Below are positions 1,448-53,850 of a stretch of DNA of 64,000 nt, one piece after another (positions within the stretch are counted from its first letter, which is position 1; each line of letters opens with the position of its first letter). Source of the DNA: a virus (taxonomy: Duplodnaviria > Caudoviricetes); IMG/VR virus record IMGVR_UViG_3300047160_036266, positions 279,422 through 343,421 of that record. One strand, given 5' to 3'. Made by a program: the position numbers and the translations under genes. Below the pieces are notes generated by a model, which worked only from the letters and a program-made list of their open reading frames with translations, searched no databases and was not told the origin of the DNA.

Positions 1448-2065
1448 TTAGCTGTTGCACATGGAGGTCACGGAGGCGAGTACCGACACCGATACGGTGG
1501 TGGCACCGGAAGTGCTGTTGTCGAACTCCAGCTTGCTGACCGTCAAATCGCCAGCGTTGAAGACCTGAGTTACCAGGCCACCTAACGTGAATACCGCATT
1601 GGTATTGCCGTTGAGGCGAACCTTGACGCCGTTCGCGCTGTTGTTGGTCAACTGGACGAACGAGGCCGGGTTGCCATACGTTCCAACGAAGTCGATGACG
1701 TTGGCCGGGGTGCTGTAGCTCGTGCCGCCGACAACATTCAGGTTTTGGGCAACCGGGAAGTTGTTTTCCGGGGCGAAGTCAGAGTAAACGCTACCGTCAT
1801 CCGTTACCACATTGATGAAAGCCTGGTCCAGAGGAACCTGCGGATAGGCAAACCGCTTCCAATAGTTGCAGTCCGTGAAGGTCTGGCCGTCACGGAGCTT
1901 GCGCCAGGTCCGGTTGGGTCCGGTGACATAAATCGTGCGCTGAATCGACGGGTTCATCTGCACGCCCAACTGATCGACGCTCGATGGCACTATTGCCTGC
2001 GTGGTCGGGTTAATGTCCATATAACCCTGGTAGGGGTTGTTCAAAGCCACTTGAAATACGCTCAT
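1448..2065 (-). CDS. Probable virion structural protein (205 aa, Asn/Thr/Val-rich, beta-type)
   Basis: Clean ORF with GGAG RBS; composition resembles the neighbouring virion proteins. Confidence 0.6.
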   Translation of the reverse strand: MSVFQVALNNPYQGYMDINPTTQAIVPSSVDQLGVQMNPSIQRTIYVTGPNRTWRKLRDGQTFTDCNYWKRFAYPQVPLDQAFINVVTDDGSVYSDFAPENNFPVAQNLNVVGGTSYSTPANVIDFVGTYGNPASFVQLTNNSANGVKVRLNGNTNAVFTLGGLVTQVFNAGDLTVSKLEFDNSTSGATTVSVSVLASVTSMCNS

Positions 2066-2109
2066 TGTTCTCCTTGAGTGTGATTCCCTGTCCTGGTCTT
2101 CGGGTGTAT

Positions 2110-2724
2110 CTATGCAGGAAGTTCCAAAACTTCCGCCCTTTCAAACATATTTTGGTACAATTTGGTCCCTAGTCCGGTTGGCACCAGGGCTGTTTGGATA
2201 CCCCTCGCCGCCGCAGCGAACAGAAACTCGTTCTCCACGCCGATGACCCAAGCCGCTCCCTGAAAATTATTGCCAACCTCGACTTCCAGGCCCTCGTCCC
2301 TGGCCAGATGGCGGCAGCGGTCGATCTGTTGTGCAGTCAATGATTTGGTTGGGATGACCCCTTCGGGGCTAATGAGGCAATAGTCGCCTGGGGGCGGCTC
2401 CGGGACACTAATGGAGAGTGGGATTTGCGACTCTTCCATAAGGACTTCGACGGGATGGGATTGCAGGTCGCAGGTGAGGTTGCGGATGTAGGCGAAGTTC
2501 AACTCGTTTTCGCGCAGTTGGCTGTAGGTTAGAACATTGGGATGGCCGTCGAGCAGGTGAAAGACTTCATCCATGCACGCTATATAAACCTGAATGCCCG
2601 GCAACTCTTTCTCGATGTTGGGACGGAGCAGCAATAGTTGAACGAGATATTCGTTTGACCTGCCGAAATAACCAATGCAGTAACGGTCTTTGATCTTCGC
2701 ATAATGCGGTAGGACTACAGCCAT
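2110..2724 (-). CDS. Degenerate GT9-like glycosyltransferase-fold protein
   Basis: Start moved to 2724 (GGAG RBS). LISPEGVIPTKSLTAQQI and AWVIGVENEFLFAAAARGIQTALV align by eye to VFSPVSAQAGKNLSKQQM and DYVVSVDTSTFHCAGGLKKPLTGI of 419-1381. Confidence 0.5.
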   Translation of the reverse strand: MAVVLPHYAKIKDRYCIGYFGRSNEYLVQLLLLRPNIEKELPGIQVYIACMDEVFHLLDGHPNVLTYSQLRENELNFAYIRNLTCDLQSHPVEVLMEESQIPLSISVPEPPPGDYCLISPEGVIPTKSLTAQQIDRCRHLARDEGLEVEVGNNFQGAAWVIGVENEFLFAAAARGIQTALVPTGLGTKLYQNMFERAEVLELPA

Positions 2725-44919: not shown

Positions 44920-46653
44920 ATGAGAACCAAATTTGAAGAGTATCTGTTGTTCAAGGAAGCCGAAGAAAACGGCGATTCTGACAATCATCACGGTGATTCG
45001 GACAAGCATTACGGTGATTCTGACAAGCATCACGGTGATTCTGACAAGAAGAGTGATGGCGGCGGTTCGTCCGGGGGCAGCGCGAGCGGTCCCGGCGACG
45101 AAGTTAGCCAGAAGGCCAAGTCGCTCATCACATCGAAAATCAAGTTGCAGAAGAAGGAGGGCAGCAACGAGTTCGCTCCGTTCACGGTGGACCGTGCCAG
45201 CCATCCGAACCTGCGCTACCTCATTAAAGCATTTGCAGATTCCGATAAAGTCGGCCTTGGTTATACCACTATTGACAAGACCAAGGGCGAAATGGAGCCG
45301 ATGCTAAAGAAAAAGACGCTACACCTTACCGGCGGGGCTGTGCGTGACCACCTGAAGGGCAAAACCCCTCGAAATTATGATCTGGTCACGGATGCCACGC
45401 CAAGTGAAATGCGCATGATCCTATCCAACCCCGAACACGGTTTTACGGAAGTCCAGCCCCGTGACCCAAAGTTGGCCCAGGATGAGCGCTATCATGAGCT
45501 ACCTCCAGCGGGTAGCAGGAACAAAGTCTTCTATCCAAGCCGCTGGGATAAACAGGGCAAGGAACTTGAATTCACGGTTGAAATCAACGGGGAGAAATTT
45601 GATCTTGCTACCCTATCCAAACACTCGAAGAGTCGCCGGGTCAGCCCGGATAAAGGCGAGTCCGCATCTTCCGTTGAGGAAGATTCCCTAAACCGGGACT
45701 TCACCATCAACGGCATGTATATCCCGCTCAACCAAAGCGATGGAGAGAACTCCGACTTGGTGGACCCACATGGCGGTGCCCACCACCTGAAAAATGGTGA
45801 GGTCGTCGCCATCGGGAGCCTGATTGACAAGCTGCGGGCTGATCCTTCAACCTCACAGCGATATGTCAAGATGCTGAGCCGCTTCGGCAACCCGGACAAG
45901 ATTCCAGACAAATATAAGGCCACCATCGAGCGATACAAGGACATGCAGGATGTGGACAAGGGCCACGTCCGCAAGGAATTCCTTTCCGGCCTCGAAAACC
46001 CCGACGTGGACCCACGCAAGTATCTGGGTGCCTATAGCAAACTCGGTCTAATGGGAGCGGTGTTCCCCGGACATGACTTCAATCCCGACGAGATGCCGCC
46101 GGACTTCAAGGGCGACCGCTGGCTCGCACCAGCCTGGGTTCTTCGCAAAGGCGATCCCCAACAGGTTATGCAGATGTTAGTTGGCCAGGGCTGGTCCAAG
46201 CAGGAGGCCCAGGACATCACCCACCTGATAAAGATGGCTCAGTGGGCCGACAAGGGCTTCGACGCTGACCAAATGTACGATCTGAAGAACAGTCACAACG
46301 GCTTGACGAAAAACAAGCAGCGTGAGTGGATGCAGATGATCGGCAAGCAGGGGAACCAGTCCGATGCCTACTTTATGCACGATGACAAAGACCTTGCCAA
46401 GATGGTAGACGGCCCGGACGGGAAGAAGCAGATCAACCCCAAGTTCCACCAACACCTGGGCCGCACGCCCAAGCCGGGCGAGCTAGAGGGCGTCCGCAAG
46501 GACTTGTCCAAGAATCGCTTCGTGGACATGCTCAATAAGCTCAAGCATCATAAAGCCGGTGGCGAGGATAAGGACAAGGACAAGCCGTTCCCTTCTCACG
46601 ACTCTGAAGATAAGAAGCAGGAGTGGGTTTCCGTGGCGGCTTTCCGCTACTAA
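44920..46653 (+). CDS. Class II nucleotidyltransferase (CCA-adding/poly(A) polymerase family) with substituted catalytic motifs
   Basis: GGAVRD, PRNYD, EEDSLNRDFTINGM and LVDPHGG. Confidence 0.85.
   Translation: MRTKFEEYLLFKEAEENGDSDNHHGDSDKHYGDSDKHHGDSDKKSDGGGSSGGSASGPGDEVSQKAKSLITSKIKLQKKEGSNEFAPFTVDRASHPNLRYLIKAFADSDKVGLGYTTIDKTKGEMEPMLKKKTLHLTGGAVRDHLKGKTPRNYDLVTDATPSEMRMILSNPEHGFTEVQPRDPKLAQDERYHELPPAGSRNKVFYPSRWDKQGKELEFTVEINGEKFDLATLSKHSKSRRVSPDKGESASSVEEDSLNRDFTINGMYIPLNQSDGENSDLVDPHGGAHHLKNGEVVAIGSLIDKLRADPSTSQRYVKMLSRFGNPDKIPDKYKATIERYKDMQDVDKGHVRKEFLSGLENPDVDPRKYLGAYSKLGLMGAVFPGHDFNPDEMPPDFKGDRWLAPAWVLRKGDPQQVMQMLVGQGWSKQEAQDITHLIKMAQWADKGFDADQMYDLKNSHNGLTKNKQREWMQMIGKQGNQSDAYFMHDDKDLAKMVDGPDGKKQINPKFHQHLGRTPKPGELEGVRKDLSKNRFVDMLNKLKHHKAGGEDKDKDKPFPSHDSEDKKQEWVSVAAFRY
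44971..45054 (+). repeat. 4 x 21-bp coding repeat (GDSDxHH)
   Basis: ggcgattctgacaatcatcac / ggtgattcggacaagcattac / ggtgattctgacaagcatcac / ggtgattctgacaagaagagt. Confidence 0.95.
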
Positions 46654-49313
46654 CCCTTCTTCGTATATCCGGGCTGCCCCTCAAGGTCCAGAATGTGCAA
46701 CTCGTCCATCGCACGAGTGTAAGCAACGTATTTCGCGTTGGCTTCCTGTGCCAAGTCCTCTGGACGCTGGGCCTTGGGGTGCGGGAACTGGTCGTCGCGC
46801 AGAATATACACCCTGCTGAACTCCAGTCCTTTTGACTTGTGGGCCGTCGTCAGGATGACGGGATTCTGCTCCTCGACCTTCCGGCGATATTCATTCAGAT
46901 CGCGCTCGTTCTCGGCTACATCCAGACCCGACAAATTGGCCTTCAGCCAGGCTTTGAACTGGCTGATCGTCTTTTGCGCCGGCCTGCGGCCTCGATCATC
47001 AGGGTAATCATCGCTCATCTCCGGGGCGAACATACCAATACAGTTCACCAACGCCTGGGTGGTATCCCGCAGTTCTTGCATCATCGCCCGCTTGGAGTTC
47101 GGCTGGCCCTGGTCCTCGAAACGGTCGTCTTCCTTTTGCTGGTGATCCTGCAACTTGTCCTTCAGGTCCGATATGGGCTGGTAATCGGTCGTACCCGTCA
47201 TGCGCATAATCTTGGCGATATGCTCCAACAAGTCCTTGGCCACGTCTTTGCCGACGATGATAAACGGCACCGCACTCGCCAGAAGCTTCAAGGCAGCGTT
47301 GACCAGCGGCTCGTTGGTCCGGGAGATAAACGCCGTGGGCTTGATATTGCCCTCCATTTTCTCCTTGCGCAACTGGCCGAAGGCGTCTTCGTATTTCAGT
47401 TCCTTGTGCGTGACCTCGCCCTCGCCGCCGTCCTTGAAGACCTTGCCCTGTTGCAAGTTGTTGACGTGAGTATTCTGGTTGGCGTAATCCAAGATGGCTT
47501 TGCGAGAGCGGAAATTCTTGGACAGGGTGAAAGGTTTCCAGCCCTCTTTATTGGCTGATAAGCCGCCCAACTGCTCGGCCAGATTATTGAAGGCGTCACC
47601 GTCAGCGCCCCTGAACCGATATATAGCTTGGTTGGGGTCGCCCACGGCCACTATTTTAGCGCCGGCATCATGAAGCTTCTTTAGGGCGATCTTCTGGTTC
47701 TCGTTGAAATCCTGCACTTCATCCGCCAGCACCACGTCATAATGCGGCCAGTGCAGTTCCTCGGCGTGGATGGAGGCATACCACAGGTCATCGTTGAAAT
47801 CCCGGAACTGCCCCATGTTGTATTCAAAATCATCCTTCTTCAAGACATGCTGCGAGGCGTGCGGGAGGGTTTCATCCAGCATCCACATCGTCGCCTGCAT
47901 CATCTCCTGCTTGTAGTTCTTCTTCATGAAGTCGTAGCCCAGGATGCGGCGCAGGTGGCCGGTGATCGTGGCATAGTAGCTGGGACTGTCGGCGTAACGG
48001 TCGATTCTCTCTTTCACGTCGCTCAGGCTGGTGTCGATGTCGTACTTGTCCATGACCTTCTCCAGCTTGGGCTGGACCTCGGCTTTATTGCGAGGATCGA
48101 GGGAATAGGACTTGGCCAGCCCCGTCAAGGTCAGGACTTCCTCCTTGAAAATATATTGCATCGAGTTGAGGATGCTGGTAAGCGTCTTCTTGATCTTGCT
48201 GTCGGCGGACACCATCTGGGCGGCATCCTTATTGGGAATGCCAAGGCTCTGGACCAATTGATTGAACTGCGGGGAATAGGTGGCGAGAATGCGGGCCTTC
48301 TCGATCATGCCCTTTTCGCCTGGGTGGTTCTTGCTAATCTCCACCGTGCGGCTCGTCTGGCGGATGCGGCCCTTGTTCTCCGGCGATCCAATCACCCTCC
48401 CCAAGAAGCCGTTGGTCGTTTCGACCTGCACCCATTGCGGAAACTTTTCTTTGGCCTCGACTTTGTTCTTGGTGTTGAAGACCAAATAGAGCCACTTCTG
48501 GCCGGGGTTGCCATATTTCCAGGCCAGGTGCTTGAGCATGGTGGTTTTGCCCGATCCAGCCAGGGCGTTAATCATGATGTGATCTTGGGTGCCGCCCTCC
48601 ATGATCTGCTTGAACTTCTCGTCAATCTGGCGCTGTTCGCTTTTCTCGCCGGGGGCGGTGCCGCTGTCCAGCATCTCGTCGGAGAGGATATGCTTGTTTC
48701 CTACGGGGCCGGCGGGGCTGGGCTTGGCCGGCTCTGGGGCCGGATCGGCATGGGGCCTGACGTGGGCCATAAGGTCTTCGATATTCTTGGACGTGATCGG
48801 CTGACCCGTCTCTTCGTCCTTGACGGACGTGACGATGTTCTTGACGGCCTCGCCAGGAATGATGGCGGTTCTCTTCTCGGCGTCCAGGGAGATCATCTCC
48901 CAGGAGGCGTCTTTTCGCTTGGCCAGGGCAACGTCCTGTCCGATGCGGAAACCCTGGGAGTTGTTGCCGGTGATTTTGGCCAATACCCAGGTTGGTCCGG
49001 CGGCTGGTTGCATGGAAGGTAAAGCCCTCGCTGGTGGACGCTCCTCCGGCGGGGGAGCAGCGGGTGGTTCGGGTCTTGGAGCAGGATGGGGAGCCGGTTT
49101 AGCAGCGGGCTTGGCTGCCCGACGCTTGGCTAGTTCCTCTTCAATTTCTCTACGGAATTCGGGGCTGATGAGTCCGGGATTATCGACGTTTTGCAAGGCC
49201 CAGGTCAGCCAGCCGCTATCAACTTCGCTGTGGTGCTTCCCTCGATGTTTGCCGAATCCAAACACACCCTCGTTCGTAAGGGTGAGCCAGCTTTTGAAAG
49301 TGAGTGTGTCCAT
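46650..49313 (-). CDS. UvrD/Rep-family SF1 helicase with an N-terminal extension and Pro-rich linker
   Basis: ALAGSGKTT, DEVQD, VGDPNQAIYRFRGA, LSKNFRS, TAHKSKGLEF and YVAYTRA. Start moved to 49313 because the longer ORF start crosses a terminator. Confidence 0.92.
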   Translation of the reverse strand: MDTLTFKSWLTLTNEGVFGFGKHRGKHHSEVDSGWLTWALQNVDNPGLISPEFRREIEEELAKRRAAKPAAKPAPHPAPRPEPPAAPPPEERPPARALPSMQPAAGPTWVLAKITGNNSQGFRIGQDVALAKRKDASWEMISLDAEKRTAIIPGEAVKNIVTSVKDEETGQPITSKNIEDLMAHVRPHADPAPEPAKPSPAGPVGNKHILSDEMLDSGTAPGEKSEQRQIDEKFKQIMEGGTQDHIMINALAGSGKTTMLKHLAWKYGNPGQKWLYLVFNTKNKVEAKEKFPQWVQVETTNGFLGRVIGSPENKGRIRQTSRTVEISKNHPGEKGMIEKARILATYSPQFNQLVQSLGIPNKDAAQMVSADSKIKKTLTSILNSMQYIFKEEVLTLTGLAKSYSLDPRNKAEVQPKLEKVMDKYDIDTSLSDVKERIDRYADSPSYYATITGHLRRILGYDFMKKNYKQEMMQATMWMLDETLPHASQHVLKKDDFEYNMGQFRDFNDDLWYASIHAEELHWPHYDVVLADEVQDFNENQKIALKKLHDAGAKIVAVGDPNQAIYRFRGADGDAFNNLAEQLGGLSANKEGWKPFTLSKNFRSRKAILDYANQNTHVNNLQQGKVFKDGGEGEVTHKELKYEDAFGQLRKEKMEGNIKPTAFISRTNEPLVNAALKLLASAVPFIIVGKDVAKDLLEHIAKIMRMTGTTDYQPISDLKDKLQDHQQKEDDRFEDQGQPNSKRAMMQELRDTTQALVNCIGMFAPEMSDDYPDDRGRRPAQKTISQFKAWLKANLSGLDVAENERDLNEYRRKVEEQNPVILTTAHKSKGLEFSRVYILRDDQFPHPKAQRPEDLAQEANAKYVAYTRAMDELHILDLEGQPGYTKKG

Positions 49314-49340: not shown

Positions 49341-49387
49341 AAAAAGAAAACCCCGGCGATCCCATTTCTGGAACCGCCGGGGTTTTC
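49341..49387 (-). terminator. Strong rho-independent terminator ending the candidate ncRNA
   Basis: GAAAACCCCGGCG-GTTCCA GAAA TGGGAT-CGCCGGGGTTTTC then TTTTT: 13 perfect pairs plus 6 pairs (two G.U) and a GAAA loop. Confidence 0.9.
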
Positions 49388-50215
49388 CCAGCAGATCAGT
49401 TTCCACACTCCGCACACGCGCTTTCGCGTTTGCTATGCAGAAGTACGAAGTGCGCCAATTGAGTCCGTCATCCTTTGGTGTTATTGCAGCTTTCCACAAG
49501 GTATGTCTGCCTGCTCAGGCCATTTGGACCCGCCGCTGACCCTGTGGCGTGACAGTATGAGGTTTGCGAACGGCTTGCACCTTCTCACTCCCTTGGGGTT
49601 TGAACGCCGGTTCCTACTTCTGCCCAACGCTTTGCAGCGTCATGCGTCCCATAGCACCACCAACGCCCTTGCCTTACGGTCGCTCCTCGGCTCTTGCCGT
49701 CACCTTGACCCCATACCCTCCTCATCTTAACGCCGGAGGAGTAGCGTCGTTTCGTGGGCGGCTTTTTGCGTGCCGCCAGGCTCAGCACCGATATGCTCGC
49801 TCGCCAGCGATGCTCCGTTAATGAGCGGAGGGCTTTTCAGCGGGGCACTGCTACTCCCCGCCGTATACCCCTCGGTGCAACCAGGACTCTCGCATCCACC
49901 GCTCAGGCACCCTTTTGGGGCGGCGTTCCTAAGCGTTCATCAGGACACCTGTTGCGGCCTATTTACCCCCTGCCCATTTCTGGTCAAAGGGCTGCTTAGC
50001 CACCATCCTGGTTCCGACTGCCTGCCGTGGTTTCCCGGATCAAATCCCCCTCCAGAGCAAGTCTTGAAGGTTTCATCTCCCCGTTGTGCCGAATAGCACT
50101 CCCTACCCTCGGTCTTGGTTTTCGTCTCGGCGGGATTTTTCACCCGTCCGATTGCCCACGGCCTTCCCGTTTCCCCGCCCCCTTTCCAGAGAGCGGGCGG
50201 ACTCGTCAACCCGGT

Positions 50216-50238
50216 TGTCAAAGAGCAAGGCTCTCACC
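50216..50238 (-). promoter_or_regulatory. rrn-type antitermination leader (boxB-like hairpin plus boxA)
   Basis: GGT-GAGA-GCC (50238-50229) immediately followed by TGCTCTTTGACA (50227-50216), 11/12 identical to the E. coli boxA TGCTCTTTAACA. Confidence 0.75.
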
Positions 50239-50251
50239 GTTGCATGATCTT

Positions 50252-50280
50252 CTTTTACTGCACCCTGCCGAAGTTGTCAA
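50252..50280 (-). promoter_or_regulatory. sigma70-type promoter for the candidate ncRNA
   Basis: TTGACA (50280-50275), 17 nt, TAAAAG (50257-50252): perfect -35, weak -10. Confidence 0.55.
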
Positions 50281-50307: not shown

Positions 50308-50336
50308 TTTACAACTGTCGCATCCTCTAGTATAGT
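50308..50336 (+). promoter_or_regulatory. sigma70-type promoter, probably giving a leaderless RNA-ligase mRNA
   Basis: TTTACA, 17 nt, TATAGT, with the ATG 7 nt later and no SD. Confidence 0.7.
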
Positions 50337-50343
50337 AAGTACC

Positions 50344-51063
50344 ATGAAGTCCGACAAGAGCCTACTCCCGGAATTTCCACGAACACGCCACCTGCCGTAC
50401 AAGCCCAATGCTGTGCGGGACGATCTGGTGGCGTCGGAGGATGATTGCGCCGTAATCTTCACCCTGGCAACCGTTTACGTCGAGGAGAAAGTGGACGGGG
50501 CCAACAGCGGCATGATGTTCTATGAGGACCGCCCCATAATAAGAAACAGGAGCCATGTGCTGAACAAGGGCTACCTGAAGGACACCCCGGCCAAGGTCCA
50601 GTTCCGCCCGATCTGGAACTGGTTTTATCAGAATAAGAAGTCCTTCGCTGATATAAACCGCATGGCGGGCGGTTCCGTGGGAATATATGGGGAGTGGATG
50701 TACGCCCTGCACGGGATCGAGTACGACCGGCTGCCCGACTGGTTCATCGCCTATGATGTCTACGACCCGGAGGCAGGAAAGTTTCTGGACACGGCCAAGG
50801 CCCGCCATCTATTGGAGGCGGCTGGCTTCCAGACCACGCCCTTCCTCCACGGCGGTCCCGTCGAAAGCTGGGAGCAGCTAGAGCGGTTCTGCCACGAACC
50901 CTCGGCGTTTTCTGGCAAGGACCGGCGGGAAGGGGTTTATATCAAGGTGTCGGACGGGCGATTCACCACCCACCGTTTCAAAATGGTGCGGGGCGATTTT
51001 ACCCAGGGATGCAAGTGGAACGAGAAGAGGATCACCAAGAACCAACTCTTCAAGGGGAAATGA
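50344..51063 (+). CDS. ATP-dependent RNA ligase (Rnl2-like nucleotidyltransferase domain)
   Basis: FPRTRHL, EEKVDGAN (KxDG), YGEW, FIAYDV, EGVYIK and KMVRGDF. Confidence 0.88.
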   Translation: MKSDKSLLPEFPRTRHLPYKPNAVRDDLVASEDDCAVIFTLATVYVEEKVDGANSGMMFYEDRPIIRNRSHVLNKGYLKDTPAKVQFRPIWNWFYQNKKSFADINRMAGGSVGIYGEWMYALHGIEYDRLPDWFIAYDVYDPEAGKFLDTAKARHLLEAAGFQTTPFLHGGPVESWEQLERFCHEPSAFSGKDRREGVYIKVSDGRFTTHRFKMVRGDFTQGCKWNEKRITKNQLFKGK

Positions 51064-52010: not shown

Positions 52011-52282
52011 AGGCTTGCGAACTAAGAATCGGTGACAGGGTGCGGATCACCGCCATTCCCGGCGAAGGTGTACCCAATTACACACTCCACCGGGAAACCC
52101 GGCAGGTCTACCAGAAGATCATCGCCCGGAAGCGCTCGGTGCGCATTTCGGAAATTGATGAGGATGGGCAGCCCTGGTACACCGTCAAGTTCCGGCGCAA
52201 GAATGGGAAGTGGGAGGAACACGTCCTCAATATCATGGACAGCGACACCAATTGGGTGCCTGTTAAAAGAAAGGTCAAATGA
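52007..52282 (+). CDS. Hypothetical protein (91 aa, SH3-like beta composition)
   Basis: ATGA coupling at both ends. Confidence 0.75.
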   Translation: MKACELRIGDRVRITAIPGEGVPNYTLHRETRQVYQKIIARKRSVRISEIDEDGQPWYTVKFRRKNGKWEEHVLNIMDSDTNWVPVKRKVK

Positions 52283-53001
52283 AAATATACAAGGAACACC
52301 ACAGCTTCGCCCCCGTCCTTCGGGACCGCTTCGCCACCGTGATTACCATTACCGATGAGGATACTCTGGAGGCGGCGAGCCATTATGATAATGCTTGCTG
52401 TCTCAATTTCGCTTCGCACAAGCGGCCTGGCGGCGGTTATAAAGCCGTGCAACATATACCCATGCCCATCAAGACTCAGGAGGAAGACCTTTTCCGGCGG
52501 TCCAACTTACCGGATATAATGGACACCAAGCAGGTCCGCCAGCACTACCCGCTTACCGGCGTGGAGGGTATCTATTGCGGCGGCGTCCAGGTCGAGCGGG
52601 ACAACAAGCTGGTGGCGCACGACCCTTATACGGTGTCGGTTATAACCGTGCCGGCGGTCGTTAATCCCCAGCCAGAACAAAAAGGTCTGGTCCGGGACAA
52701 GGTGAGGCGAATTTTGGAAATCGCCGCTGAGCAAGGCCATGAGGTATTGATCCTGGGTGCTTGGGGCTGCGGCGTTTTCAACAACGACCCGGAGGAGATC
52801 GCCGGGTTGTTCCTGGGCTTCCTGGTCGGTGAGTTCCGGGGCGTGTTCAGCGAGGTAGTCTTCGCCATCCCCGGCAAGGAAAGCCGGAACCACAAATTGT
52901 TTGTATCGGTGCTTCATGAGACTGTATACTCGGCCCAAGTCAACCCTGTCCAAATACCGGAGGCGGAAGCTCGCCCTGGAGAAGACACGCCAGTGGCTTG
53001 A
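52279..53001 (+). CDS. TIGR02452 / bacterial PARG-like macrodomain (ADP-ribose glycohydrolase)
   Basis: LNFASHKRPGGG, TQEEDLFRRSNL and LILGAWGCGVFNNDP. Confidence 0.88.
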   Translation: MKIYKEHHSFAPVLRDRFATVITITDEDTLEAASHYDNACCLNFASHKRPGGGYKAVQHIPMPIKTQEEDLFRRSNLPDIMDTKQVRQHYPLTGVEGIYCGGVQVERDNKLVAHDPYTVSVITVPAVVNPQPEQKGLVRDKVRRILEIAAEQGHEVLILGAWGCGVFNNDPEEIAGLFLGFLVGEFRGVFSEVVFAIPGKESRNHKLFVSVLHETVYSAQVNPVQIPEAEARPGEDTPVA

Positions 53002-53227
53002 GCAATACCACGCACCGAAGGAACCGCCAGCGGAACCCCGCAAGGAACACAAGAGGACCAAGCCGGACCCAAAGGAACAAAAGTCCTTCTACCGCCGCCA
53101 ACAGGAAAAGGGCTGGCGGGCGCAGAACGAAGAAGATTACTACACGCCCACGCAGCAGGAAATGACCAAGATTTTGACGGTCGCAGAGGCCCTGGCCCTG
53201 CTCGACCGAATGGGGGAGAACGCATGA
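52916..53227 (+). CDS. Basic hypothetical protein (~103 aa)
   Basis: Fills the gap and couples to the next gene by ATGA; overlaps the PARG 3' end. Confidence 0.55.
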   Translation: MRLYTRPKSTLSKYRRRKLALEKTRQWLEQYHAPKEPPAEPRKEHKRTKPDPKEQKSFYRRQQEKGWRAQNEEDYYTPTQQEMTKILTVAEALALLDRMGENA

Positions 53228-53850
53228 GCAACGTCAAGATCACCGACATGCAGAAGAAATGGCTCGGCCTGCCCGAACCAACCTTCTGCAACGGCAAGAA
53301 GAAGCTCAAGCTCTGGGACTTCGACGGCACGCTCTATAACTCCCCAGACCGTGCCGAAGGGGAGGTTCTGTACCTGGAGGGAACGGGTAAGGAGTGGCCC
53401 TTCGGCGGCTGGTGGGGTCGTATTGAAACTCTCATGCCGCCCATCATCCCCGATCCGCCGCCACGGGACAGGCTCATTCTCTGGACCTACGAGCAATACC
53501 TCCAGGCCAAGGCCGACCCCCAGGCTCATAACGTCCTGCTCACCGGGCGTCCCTACAAGAACCGCCAGCGGGTCCAGGCCATCCTTGCGCACTTTGATAT
53601 TTCCTTCGATGAGGAATATTACCGGGGGATGCGGGGCCTCGACGGACACGATACCTTCGAGATCAAGTGCGGCATCATCGAGAACCGCCTGGTCAGTAGC
53701 CGCCTCGAAGAGATCGACCTGTGGGAAGACCGCCCCGAACACACCGGGCCGTTCACGGCCTTCCTCGGTCGCCTCAAGTCCAAGTACCGCAATACTTTGC
53801 GTAGGGCCGTGGTGCATGACGTGCCTAACCAGGCGCATTACGAGGTTTAA
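53224..53850 (+). CDS. HAD phosphatase, Swiss Army Knife RNA-repair-like family
   Basis: WDFDGTLYNSP, WW, LLTGR and LWEDRPEH. Confidence 0.85.
   Translation: MSNVKITDMQKKWLGLPEPTFCNGKKKLKLWDFDGTLYNSPDRAEGEVLYLEGTGKEWPFGGWWGRIETLMPPIIPDPPPRDRLILWTYEQYLQAKADPQAHNVLLTGRPYKNRQRVQAILAHFDISFDEEYYRGMRGLDGHDTFEIKCGIIENRLVSSRLEEIDLWEDRPEHTGPFTAFLGRLKSKYRNTLRRAVVHDVPNQAHYEV

Follow-up and report, generated by a model that had tools for sequence, protein, structure and literature searches.

Bacteria and phages have very few non-coding RNAs (ncRNAs) that exceed about 500 nt and fold in a complex, conserved way: the ribosomal RNAs (rRNAs), RNase P, tmRNA, introns, OLE, GOLLD, ROOL, HEARO and raiA. To our knowledge, nearly all large ncRNAs have turned out to be ribozymes, cores of ribonucleoproteins (RNPs) or, lately, RNA-only cages. 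The RNA-only cage of GOLLD is a 14-mer. Among RNAs that act together with proteins, Y RNA serves as a tether or regulator of the Ro60/RtcB protein machinery, and the pRNA of phage phi29 works by assembling with phage machinery. Both GOLLD and ROOL self-assemble into RNA-only particles (10.1101/2024.12.08.627333). The locus described here (49341–50280, minus strand) lies in a 64,000-nt stretch of phage DNA (the window), which is the final 64 kb of a 343-kb IMG/VR record (IMGVR_UViG_3300047160_036266). It is very probably a stand-alone gene for a multi-domain, pseudoknotted ncRNA of about 900 nt. That this RNA belongs to a family outside Rfam, present in a small clade of giant phages from soil, is well supported.

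An earlier analysis of this DNA without database searches (the sequence-only reading) had proposed that the locus encodes a large, stand-alone, structured ncRNA on the minus strand, and homologues, covariation, strand asymmetry, the lack of a coding signal and read depth in RNA-labelled libraries all bear this out. Five further copies of the RNA were found, three full-length and one partial, with one relative having two tandem copies. Full-length homologues were retrieved with a conserved block as the search pattern; they include L011 (equal to L023; JGI contigs), which is 90% identical, and L010 (equal to L012 and approximately to L013 and L040; IMG/VR and JGI contigs), which is 73% identical and has the order RNA ligase, RNA, helicase. 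The partial copy, the 3′ 590 nt on a contig of lower G+C from an NCBI metagenome-assembled genome (L015), was reached via a 65%-identical helicase. The most diverged relative, a Logan contig whose helicase is 50% identical (L018), was detected only by covariance models of the core, 3′ and 5′ domains (R1, R2 and R3, respectively), with 55 and 27 bits for R1, 30.5 and 23 bits for R2, and 19.6 bits for R3 (copy 1, E 5e-5). The spacing of these matches indicates two tandem, diverged copies of the entire RNA; the tandem unit of about 1.7 kb (L018:90–1800) has a single promoter, boxA and terminator and lies directly upstream of the helicase. The RNA is single-copy in the phage studied here. All carriers are giant phages from soil, with 45–62% G+C.

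The folding comparison that the sequence-only reading had suggested and an analysis of covariation both came out in favor of a minus-strand RNA. The minus strand has a minimum free energy of −386.9 kcal/mol (z = −5.8 against shuffles), compared with z = −1.4 for the plus strand. For a four-sequence, whole-length alignment, RNAalifold gives 223 pairs with 96.8% of cells paired, and 55 of the 223 retain pairing through two-sided changes. Such compensatory pairs number 17.7 ± 3.5 (maximum 25) in 30 shuffled alignments, in which columns were shuffled within conservation classes, and sliding the partners by one to three columns leaves 4–11 of them with 36–43% pairing. The RNAalifold energy is −223.6, against −118 ± 9 for the 30 column-shuffled alignments. 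Pairs are thus kept by compensatory substitutions well above controls, as in structured ncRNAs generally. Placing the mirror image of this structure on the plus strand lowers pairing to 83.8% of cells; the G-U pairs thus identify the minus strand as that of the RNA, which is what the sequence-only reading had argued from individual stems.

The same signal is found domain by domain. The 5′ domain (50009–50207, model R3) comprises the segment GAGUCC (50204–50199), a GGAA-capped 10-bp hairpin (50197–50174) and a multi-branched region; over four sequences its 51 pairs are 95.7% paired, with 17 double-change pairs against 5.3 ± 1.8 in shuffles and 1–2 when partners are slid. It is followed by a long hairpin with a conserved CAGAAAUGGG loop region (49949–50008; RNAalifold pairs, columns 291–340), in which the window and L010 differ by several double changes. 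The conserved core (49723–49889, model R1) is a multi-helix junction and holds the blocks that are most conserved: AGUCCU.GU, CACCGAGGG, GGAAAAGCCCUCC, CUGGCGAG, UCGGUGCUGAGCCUGGCGG and GAAACGACG. Across six sequences, its 40 pairs are 96% paired, and 29 of them show double changes (12.4 ± 2.4 shuffled, 3–7 slid). An H-type pseudoknot (49718–49741) joins the loop CUCCUC (49741–49736) of the hairpin that follows GAAACGACG to the segment GAGGAG (49723–49718), about 10 nt downstream. This pairing occurs in all six sequences with differing letters (CUCCUC:GAGGAG, CUCCUC:GGGGAG, CCCUC:GAGGG, UUCCUC:GAGGAA, CCGAC:GUCGG and UCAGC:GCUGA), according to inspection by eye of anchored sequences; between the two closest relatives the only difference is an A-to-G change. 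A long arm (49554–49722), tipped by a GCAA-capped hairpin (49640–49627), varies between 150 and 210 nt among homologues and is rich in indels in the alignment, while the stems flanking it stay paired via double changes. The 3′ domain (49391–49553, model R2) contains the invariant AGGCAGACAUACC..UGGAAAGCUGCA, the segment GGACUC (49466–49461) and a 12-bp hairpin (49452–49406); its 37 pairs are 94.4% paired over six sequences and include 17 double-change pairs (6.4 ± 1.8 shuffled, 2–4 slid). For each of the three models none of 500 shuffles reaches the observed values, in domain alignments that were fitted to the models and hence somewhat in their favor. A long-range closing helix between 50204–50199 and 49466–49461 encloses the 5′ domain, core, variable arm and 3′ domain. 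Eleven helices with 100% canonical pairing in each sequence, and with 3–8 compensatory pairs apiece, were also found by an independent helix finder on a segment-wise alignment. Several hairpins named in the sequence-only reading, at 50197–50174, 49863–49839, 49428–49419 and the GCAA-capped 49640–49627, show compensatory changes in homologues; two others, CC-GUAA-GG (49679–49672) and GGU-GCAA-GCC (49581–49572), are present in the sequence but are not pairings that the comparative model backs.

The RNA body is framed by signals of its own. Upstream on the minus strand stands a promoter-like element (50252–50280), read directly as TTGACA (50280–50275), a 17-nt spacer and TAAAAG (50257–50252), as the sequence-only reading had also listed it, with a predicted transcript start near 50245. 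The −35 hexamer and the block AGTAAAAG.AGATCA are conserved in three homologues (L011 and L010 among them) with a variable spacer, and L018 has an equivalent promoter, TTGACA-16-TGaTATAGT, at the corresponding position. A consensus promoter scan did not call the element because its −10 hexamer ends in G, not T. Next come a leader hairpin, GCAACGG-UGAGA-GCCUUGC (50243–50225), and, overlapping it, the boxA-like 13-mer TGCTCTTTGACAA (50227–50215), 18–30 nt past the predicted start; this leader block, recognized earlier as boxB/boxA, is invariant in three homologues, and in L018 a boxA-like GATCTTTGACAA sits right behind the promoter. The 13-mer differs by one base from TGCTCTTTAACAA, which we take to be the E. 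coli rrn boxA. It occurs once more in the 343-kb genome, identical and on the transcribed strand, upstream of tRNA genes, which supports its being a real boxA for untranslated phage transcripts. The region of this second 13-mer (genome about 128845–129132, minus strand) lies downstream of a 111-aa open reading frame (ORF) and continues with about 270 nt of non-coding sequence before the tRNA genes; this stretch could be another small RNA or a processing leader. As in rrn leaders, a hairpin and then boxA stand directly behind the promoter of an untranslated transcript; unlike them, boxA here precedes, in a phage, an ncRNA and a cluster of tRNAs rather than rRNA. Binding of NusB/NusE to boxA prevents Rho termination, and antitermination is established for rRNA (PMC4807359). 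At the other end lies an intrinsic terminator (49341–49389) with a G+C-rich 21-bp stem (49389–49344), a GAAA loop (49368–49365) and a U tract. Its stem, which the sequence-only reading had also described as GAAA-capped and followed by a U tract, shows double changes at 10 of its 21 pairs across homologues, and L018 has a GAAA-capped counterpart (1757–1794).

Comparison with the described large RNAs yields no known family. Rfam 15 at gathering scores gave no match over the whole window; at E ≤ 10 with permissive filters only terminator-hairpin look-alikes appeared in the window, and no family matched the two diverged, lower-GC homologues (L015 and L018). The RNA is thus not a recognizable GOLLD, ROOL, OLE, HEARO, raiA, RNase P, tmRNA or intron. 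It resembles GOLLD and ROOL in being phage-encoded, 600–900 nt long and multi-domain, with pseudoknots, many GNRA loops and a better conserved 3′ part, and in being a stand-alone transcript; a nuclease-resistant assembly would be a further likeness, as a hypothesis only. These features of size class, origin and fold are what spoke for the proposal of the sequence-only reading that the RNA is a divergent GOLLD or ROOL. However, neither Rfam model matches even at E ≤ 10, and GOLLD and ROOL are described as frequent neighbors of tRNA islands, whereas ARAGORN found no tRNA gene in the 64-kb window and the genome's nearest tRNAs are some 200 kb away; the RNA also differs in its occurrence in giant soil phages, its boxA leader and its constant helicase, CCA-type nucleotidyltransferase and RNA ligase neighbors. 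Membership in either family is therefore scarcely probable, and the evidence supports the other option raised at that time, a new class of giant phage ncRNA.

The likeness to the Y RNAs of Ro60 (Rsr)/RtcB systems consists in an ncRNA encoded beside RNA ligase and RNA-end-processing genes. The RNA here is about nine times larger and the ligase is Rnl-type (PF09414), not RtcB; no TROVE/Ro60 gene (PF05731) was found in the 343-kb record (69% complete by CheckV), nor any match to Y RNA models in the window. The parallel with phi29 pRNA, an abundant phage-encoded structural RNA, holds in concept only, since pRNA has about 170 nt and an unrelated sequence, and no packaging genes adjoin the RNA here. 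Size and complexity of the fold fall in the range of ribozymes and many junction nucleotides are invariant, so an ORF-less self-splicing intron, another known ribozyme or a housekeeping RNA of the RNase P or tmRNA kind has to be considered. Yet no group I, group II, RNase P or tmRNA model matches at E ≤ 10, and no gene is interrupted into exons: both genes that flank the RNA are complete, and it has a promoter and a terminator of its own. The phage moreover has a separate tmRNA gene (genome 12849–13200; tag AENDLRLAA). Such an identity is improbable.

Wider searches returned few relatives. One 20-mer pattern led to L010 and a 28-base degenerate pattern to L010 only, a second 20-mer found nothing, and a metagenome scan yielded L011 and L013. 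No match was obtained by blastn of the RNA against 50,697 phage records or with models R1 and R2 against the genome of phage RaK2, and the whole IMG/VR records of RNA ligase homologues (L003–L005) hold no similar RNA. Of two scans of genome contigs, the first was empty and the second gave one chance match (L039). Seven matches of a G+C-rich 19-mer and one contig from the metagenome scan (L014) were likewise judged to be chance. No description of this RNA was found in the literature.

Could the locus encode no functional RNA at all, being instead a decayed gene, a set of small ORFs or a high-copy DNA fragment? Short ORFs do occur on both strands. However, substitutions across homologues show no 3-base periodicity, indels come in threes in none of five cases (window and L011) and 3 of 18 (window and L010), and stops are present in all six frames of every homologue. 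The gap that holds the RNA is the window's largest stretch without an ORF of at least 120 aa, in agreement with the sequence-only reading of a gene-free region of about 1 kb. Another stretch of 969 nt without such ORFs lies outside the window (genome 197911–198879). It has small ORFs, two of which are similar (about 90–100 aa, minus strand) with a bidirectional terminator between; with these small ORFs and folding z-scores of only −3.1 and −2.7, it was rejected as a second giant RNA.

The possibility of a high-copy DNA fragment is raised by sequencing depth. About 18 soil DNA studies contain the stretch at a low, even depth (2–5). Two small libraries labelled METATRANSCRIPTOMIC/RANDOM PCR (X2 and X4) differ: X2 has a 675-nt contig (49417–50090) at a k-mer depth of 873, with flanking pieces of the helicase gene at 2.7–6.3, and X4 has a 576-nt contig (49477–50052) at a depth of 240. 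By our own arithmetic (873 × 675 nt in a total of 120 Mb), about 0.5% of run X2 is this RNA. This library also contains several diverged relatives at depths of 5–14.5, which match conserved blocks (49518–49620, 49772–49838 and 50101–50163) while the stretches between are replaced; several of them match the R1 core block. The libraries with the spike were prepared by random PCR and carry the flag 'probably DNA', which would suit a DNA explanation. Against it, the ends of the high-depth contig differ between the two runs and so do not mark a discrete element, the relatives' cores are enriched too, the covariation is strand-specific and the pseudoknot covaries. A locus without functional RNA is the least probable of the explanations considered. 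A 150–300-fold excess that stays within the RNA body, and is seen in both samples as well as in relatives, is hard to explain by DNA alone, and the RNA appears to be very abundant in environmental libraries.

The genomic setting is that of a giant phage: the 343-kb record encodes a tmRNA and 12 tRNAs, which fits a 'huge' phage. Eight of the 12 are tRNA-Leu, with five different anticodons, and the rest are two Phe and two Ser (genome 99858–129931). The RNA occupies a divergent intergenic gap of 1.03 kb. On one side lies a gene for a UvrD-like superfamily 1 (SF1) helicase (46650–49313, minus strand; Pfam UvrD-helicase/UvrD_C, PHROG DNA helicase), which converges with a gene for a nucleotidyltransferase of the CCA-adding-enzyme type (44920–46653, plus strand; Pfam PolyA_pol head domain). 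On the other side, divergent from the RNA, lies the RNA ligase gene (50344–51063, plus strand; Pfam RNA_ligase 2e-28), and further neighbors are a PARG-like macrodomain protein (52279–53001) and a 'Swiss Army Knife RNA repair' HAD phosphatase (53224–53850). Ahead of its UvrD domain, the helicase is extended at the N terminus by about 220 aa (48650–49313, minus strand), including a Pro/Ala-rich low-complexity linker; this extension could be an RNA- or partner-binding module. The ligase gene has a near-consensus promoter, TTTACA-17-TATAGT (50308–50336, plus strand), back-to-back with that of the RNA; as this ends 8 nt before the ATG at 50344, the ligase mRNA would be leaderless.

These neighbors recur with the RNA. 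Adjacent, convergent helicase and nucleotidyltransferase genes accompany it wherever it is found, in four lineages (the window, L011/L023, L010/L013/L040 and L018, whose nucleotidyltransferase is only 34% identical), and RNA ligase is the divergent neighbor in all three lineages in which that side is visible (L010/L040, L011/L023 and the window). Conversely, five loci with the helicase only and about six with the nucleotidyltransferase only lack the RNA, and in these the two genes are not neighbors. Helicase homologues of 48–58% identity (L016, L017, L019–L022 and L033–L035) yielded no RNA in nhmmer searches or in model searches, for which R1 was run on all of them and R2 on L016–L022, and nucleotidyltransferase homologues of 53–65% identity (L041–L050) yielded no credible match; a 16-bit match in the latter search fell inside a 430-aa ORF and was judged false. 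The presence of the RNA only where helicase and nucleotidyltransferase genes are adjacent favors an RNA that works with RNA-end-processing proteins.

The order of RNA and then helicase is kept in all homologous loci, and the helicase gene begins only 28 nt past the terminator, both of which would be expected if it were a long leader or attenuator acting in cis on the helicase mRNA. Several observations disagree with such a role. The 21-bp terminator and its U tract stand between the two, the high contig depth is confined to the RNA body and does not extend into the helicase gene, L018 has two tandem RNA copies, and helicase homologues of 48–57% identity lack the RNA. L023 has, between the RNA terminator and the helicase, a gene of 274 aa on the opposite strand (1629–2453, minus strand; no Pfam match). 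A helicase leader is thus very unlikely.

For the stand-alone ncRNA gene, the following course of events can be proposed. The minus strand would be transcribed from the sigma-70-like promoter, and the first 30 nt or so, a hairpin and an rrn-type boxA, may by analogy with rRNA operons recruit the host Nus antitermination complex. The long untranslated transcript would in this way escape Rho and fold co-transcriptionally, and the strong intrinsic terminator would end it just ahead of the helicase gene. It appears that the product reaches far higher levels than the rest of the phage's sequences. As to what it does, we tentatively infer a component or scaffold of a module with the SF1 helicase, the CCA-type nucleotidyltransferase and the RNA ligase. 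This module would sit in an RNA-end-repair neighborhood, with the PARG-like macrodomain protein and the 'Swiss Army Knife' HAD phosphatase, and the RNA might be its tether or platform, or a maintained substrate, much as Y RNAs are for Ro60/RtcB modules. Next in likelihood, and already doubtful, is self-assembly into a nuclease-resistant, RNA-only particle in the manner of GOLLD and ROOL, a role that would fit the size, the ornate fold and the way the RNA seems to persist in virome-like libraries. That the RNA is a decoy against RNA-targeting defenses of the host is rather unlikely, and a ribozyme more unlikely still.

Several points weigh against the interpretation as a stand-alone ncRNA that works with its neighbors. 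The comparative set is thin, as about five phage lineages supply its six sequences and two of these are close, and the RNAalifold structure was picked on the alignment used to score it. The promoter is non-canonical, its −10 hexamer being off consensus without the final T. The X2 and X4 evidence consists of contigs with one depth figure each, whose ends and strand are unreadable; both libraries are flagged 'RNA? (probably DNA)', they have contigs of 32–53 kb and so contain DNA too, and random-PCR libraries are uneven. The functional link to the neighboring genes is weak, as it rests on synteny in related phages that shared ancestry could explain, and the gene between RNA and helicase in L023 is unrelated to them.

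A bolder proposal, which we consider unlikely, is a nuclease-protected particle of either kind, an RNA-only cage or an RNP with the dedicated helicase and nucleotidyltransferase, possibly virion-associated. If true, it would explain how the RNA comes to about 0.5% of library bases at some 150–300 times the depth of the phage's genes, as well as the enrichment of diverged relatives in X2. It would also make this RNA a third unrelated lineage of giant self-organizing RNAs in phages, and the first whose protein partners can be identified. A new, unrelated class of about 900 nt would offer a tractable system, with a promoter/boxA/terminator cassette, a covarying, pseudoknotted core, a tandem duplication, seemingly very high abundance and a constant set of RNA-processing neighbors, in which the question of what giant phage RNAs do becomes directly testable. 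The shared boxA further suggests that the phage puts an antitermination signal of host rRNA to use in non-coding genes of its own.

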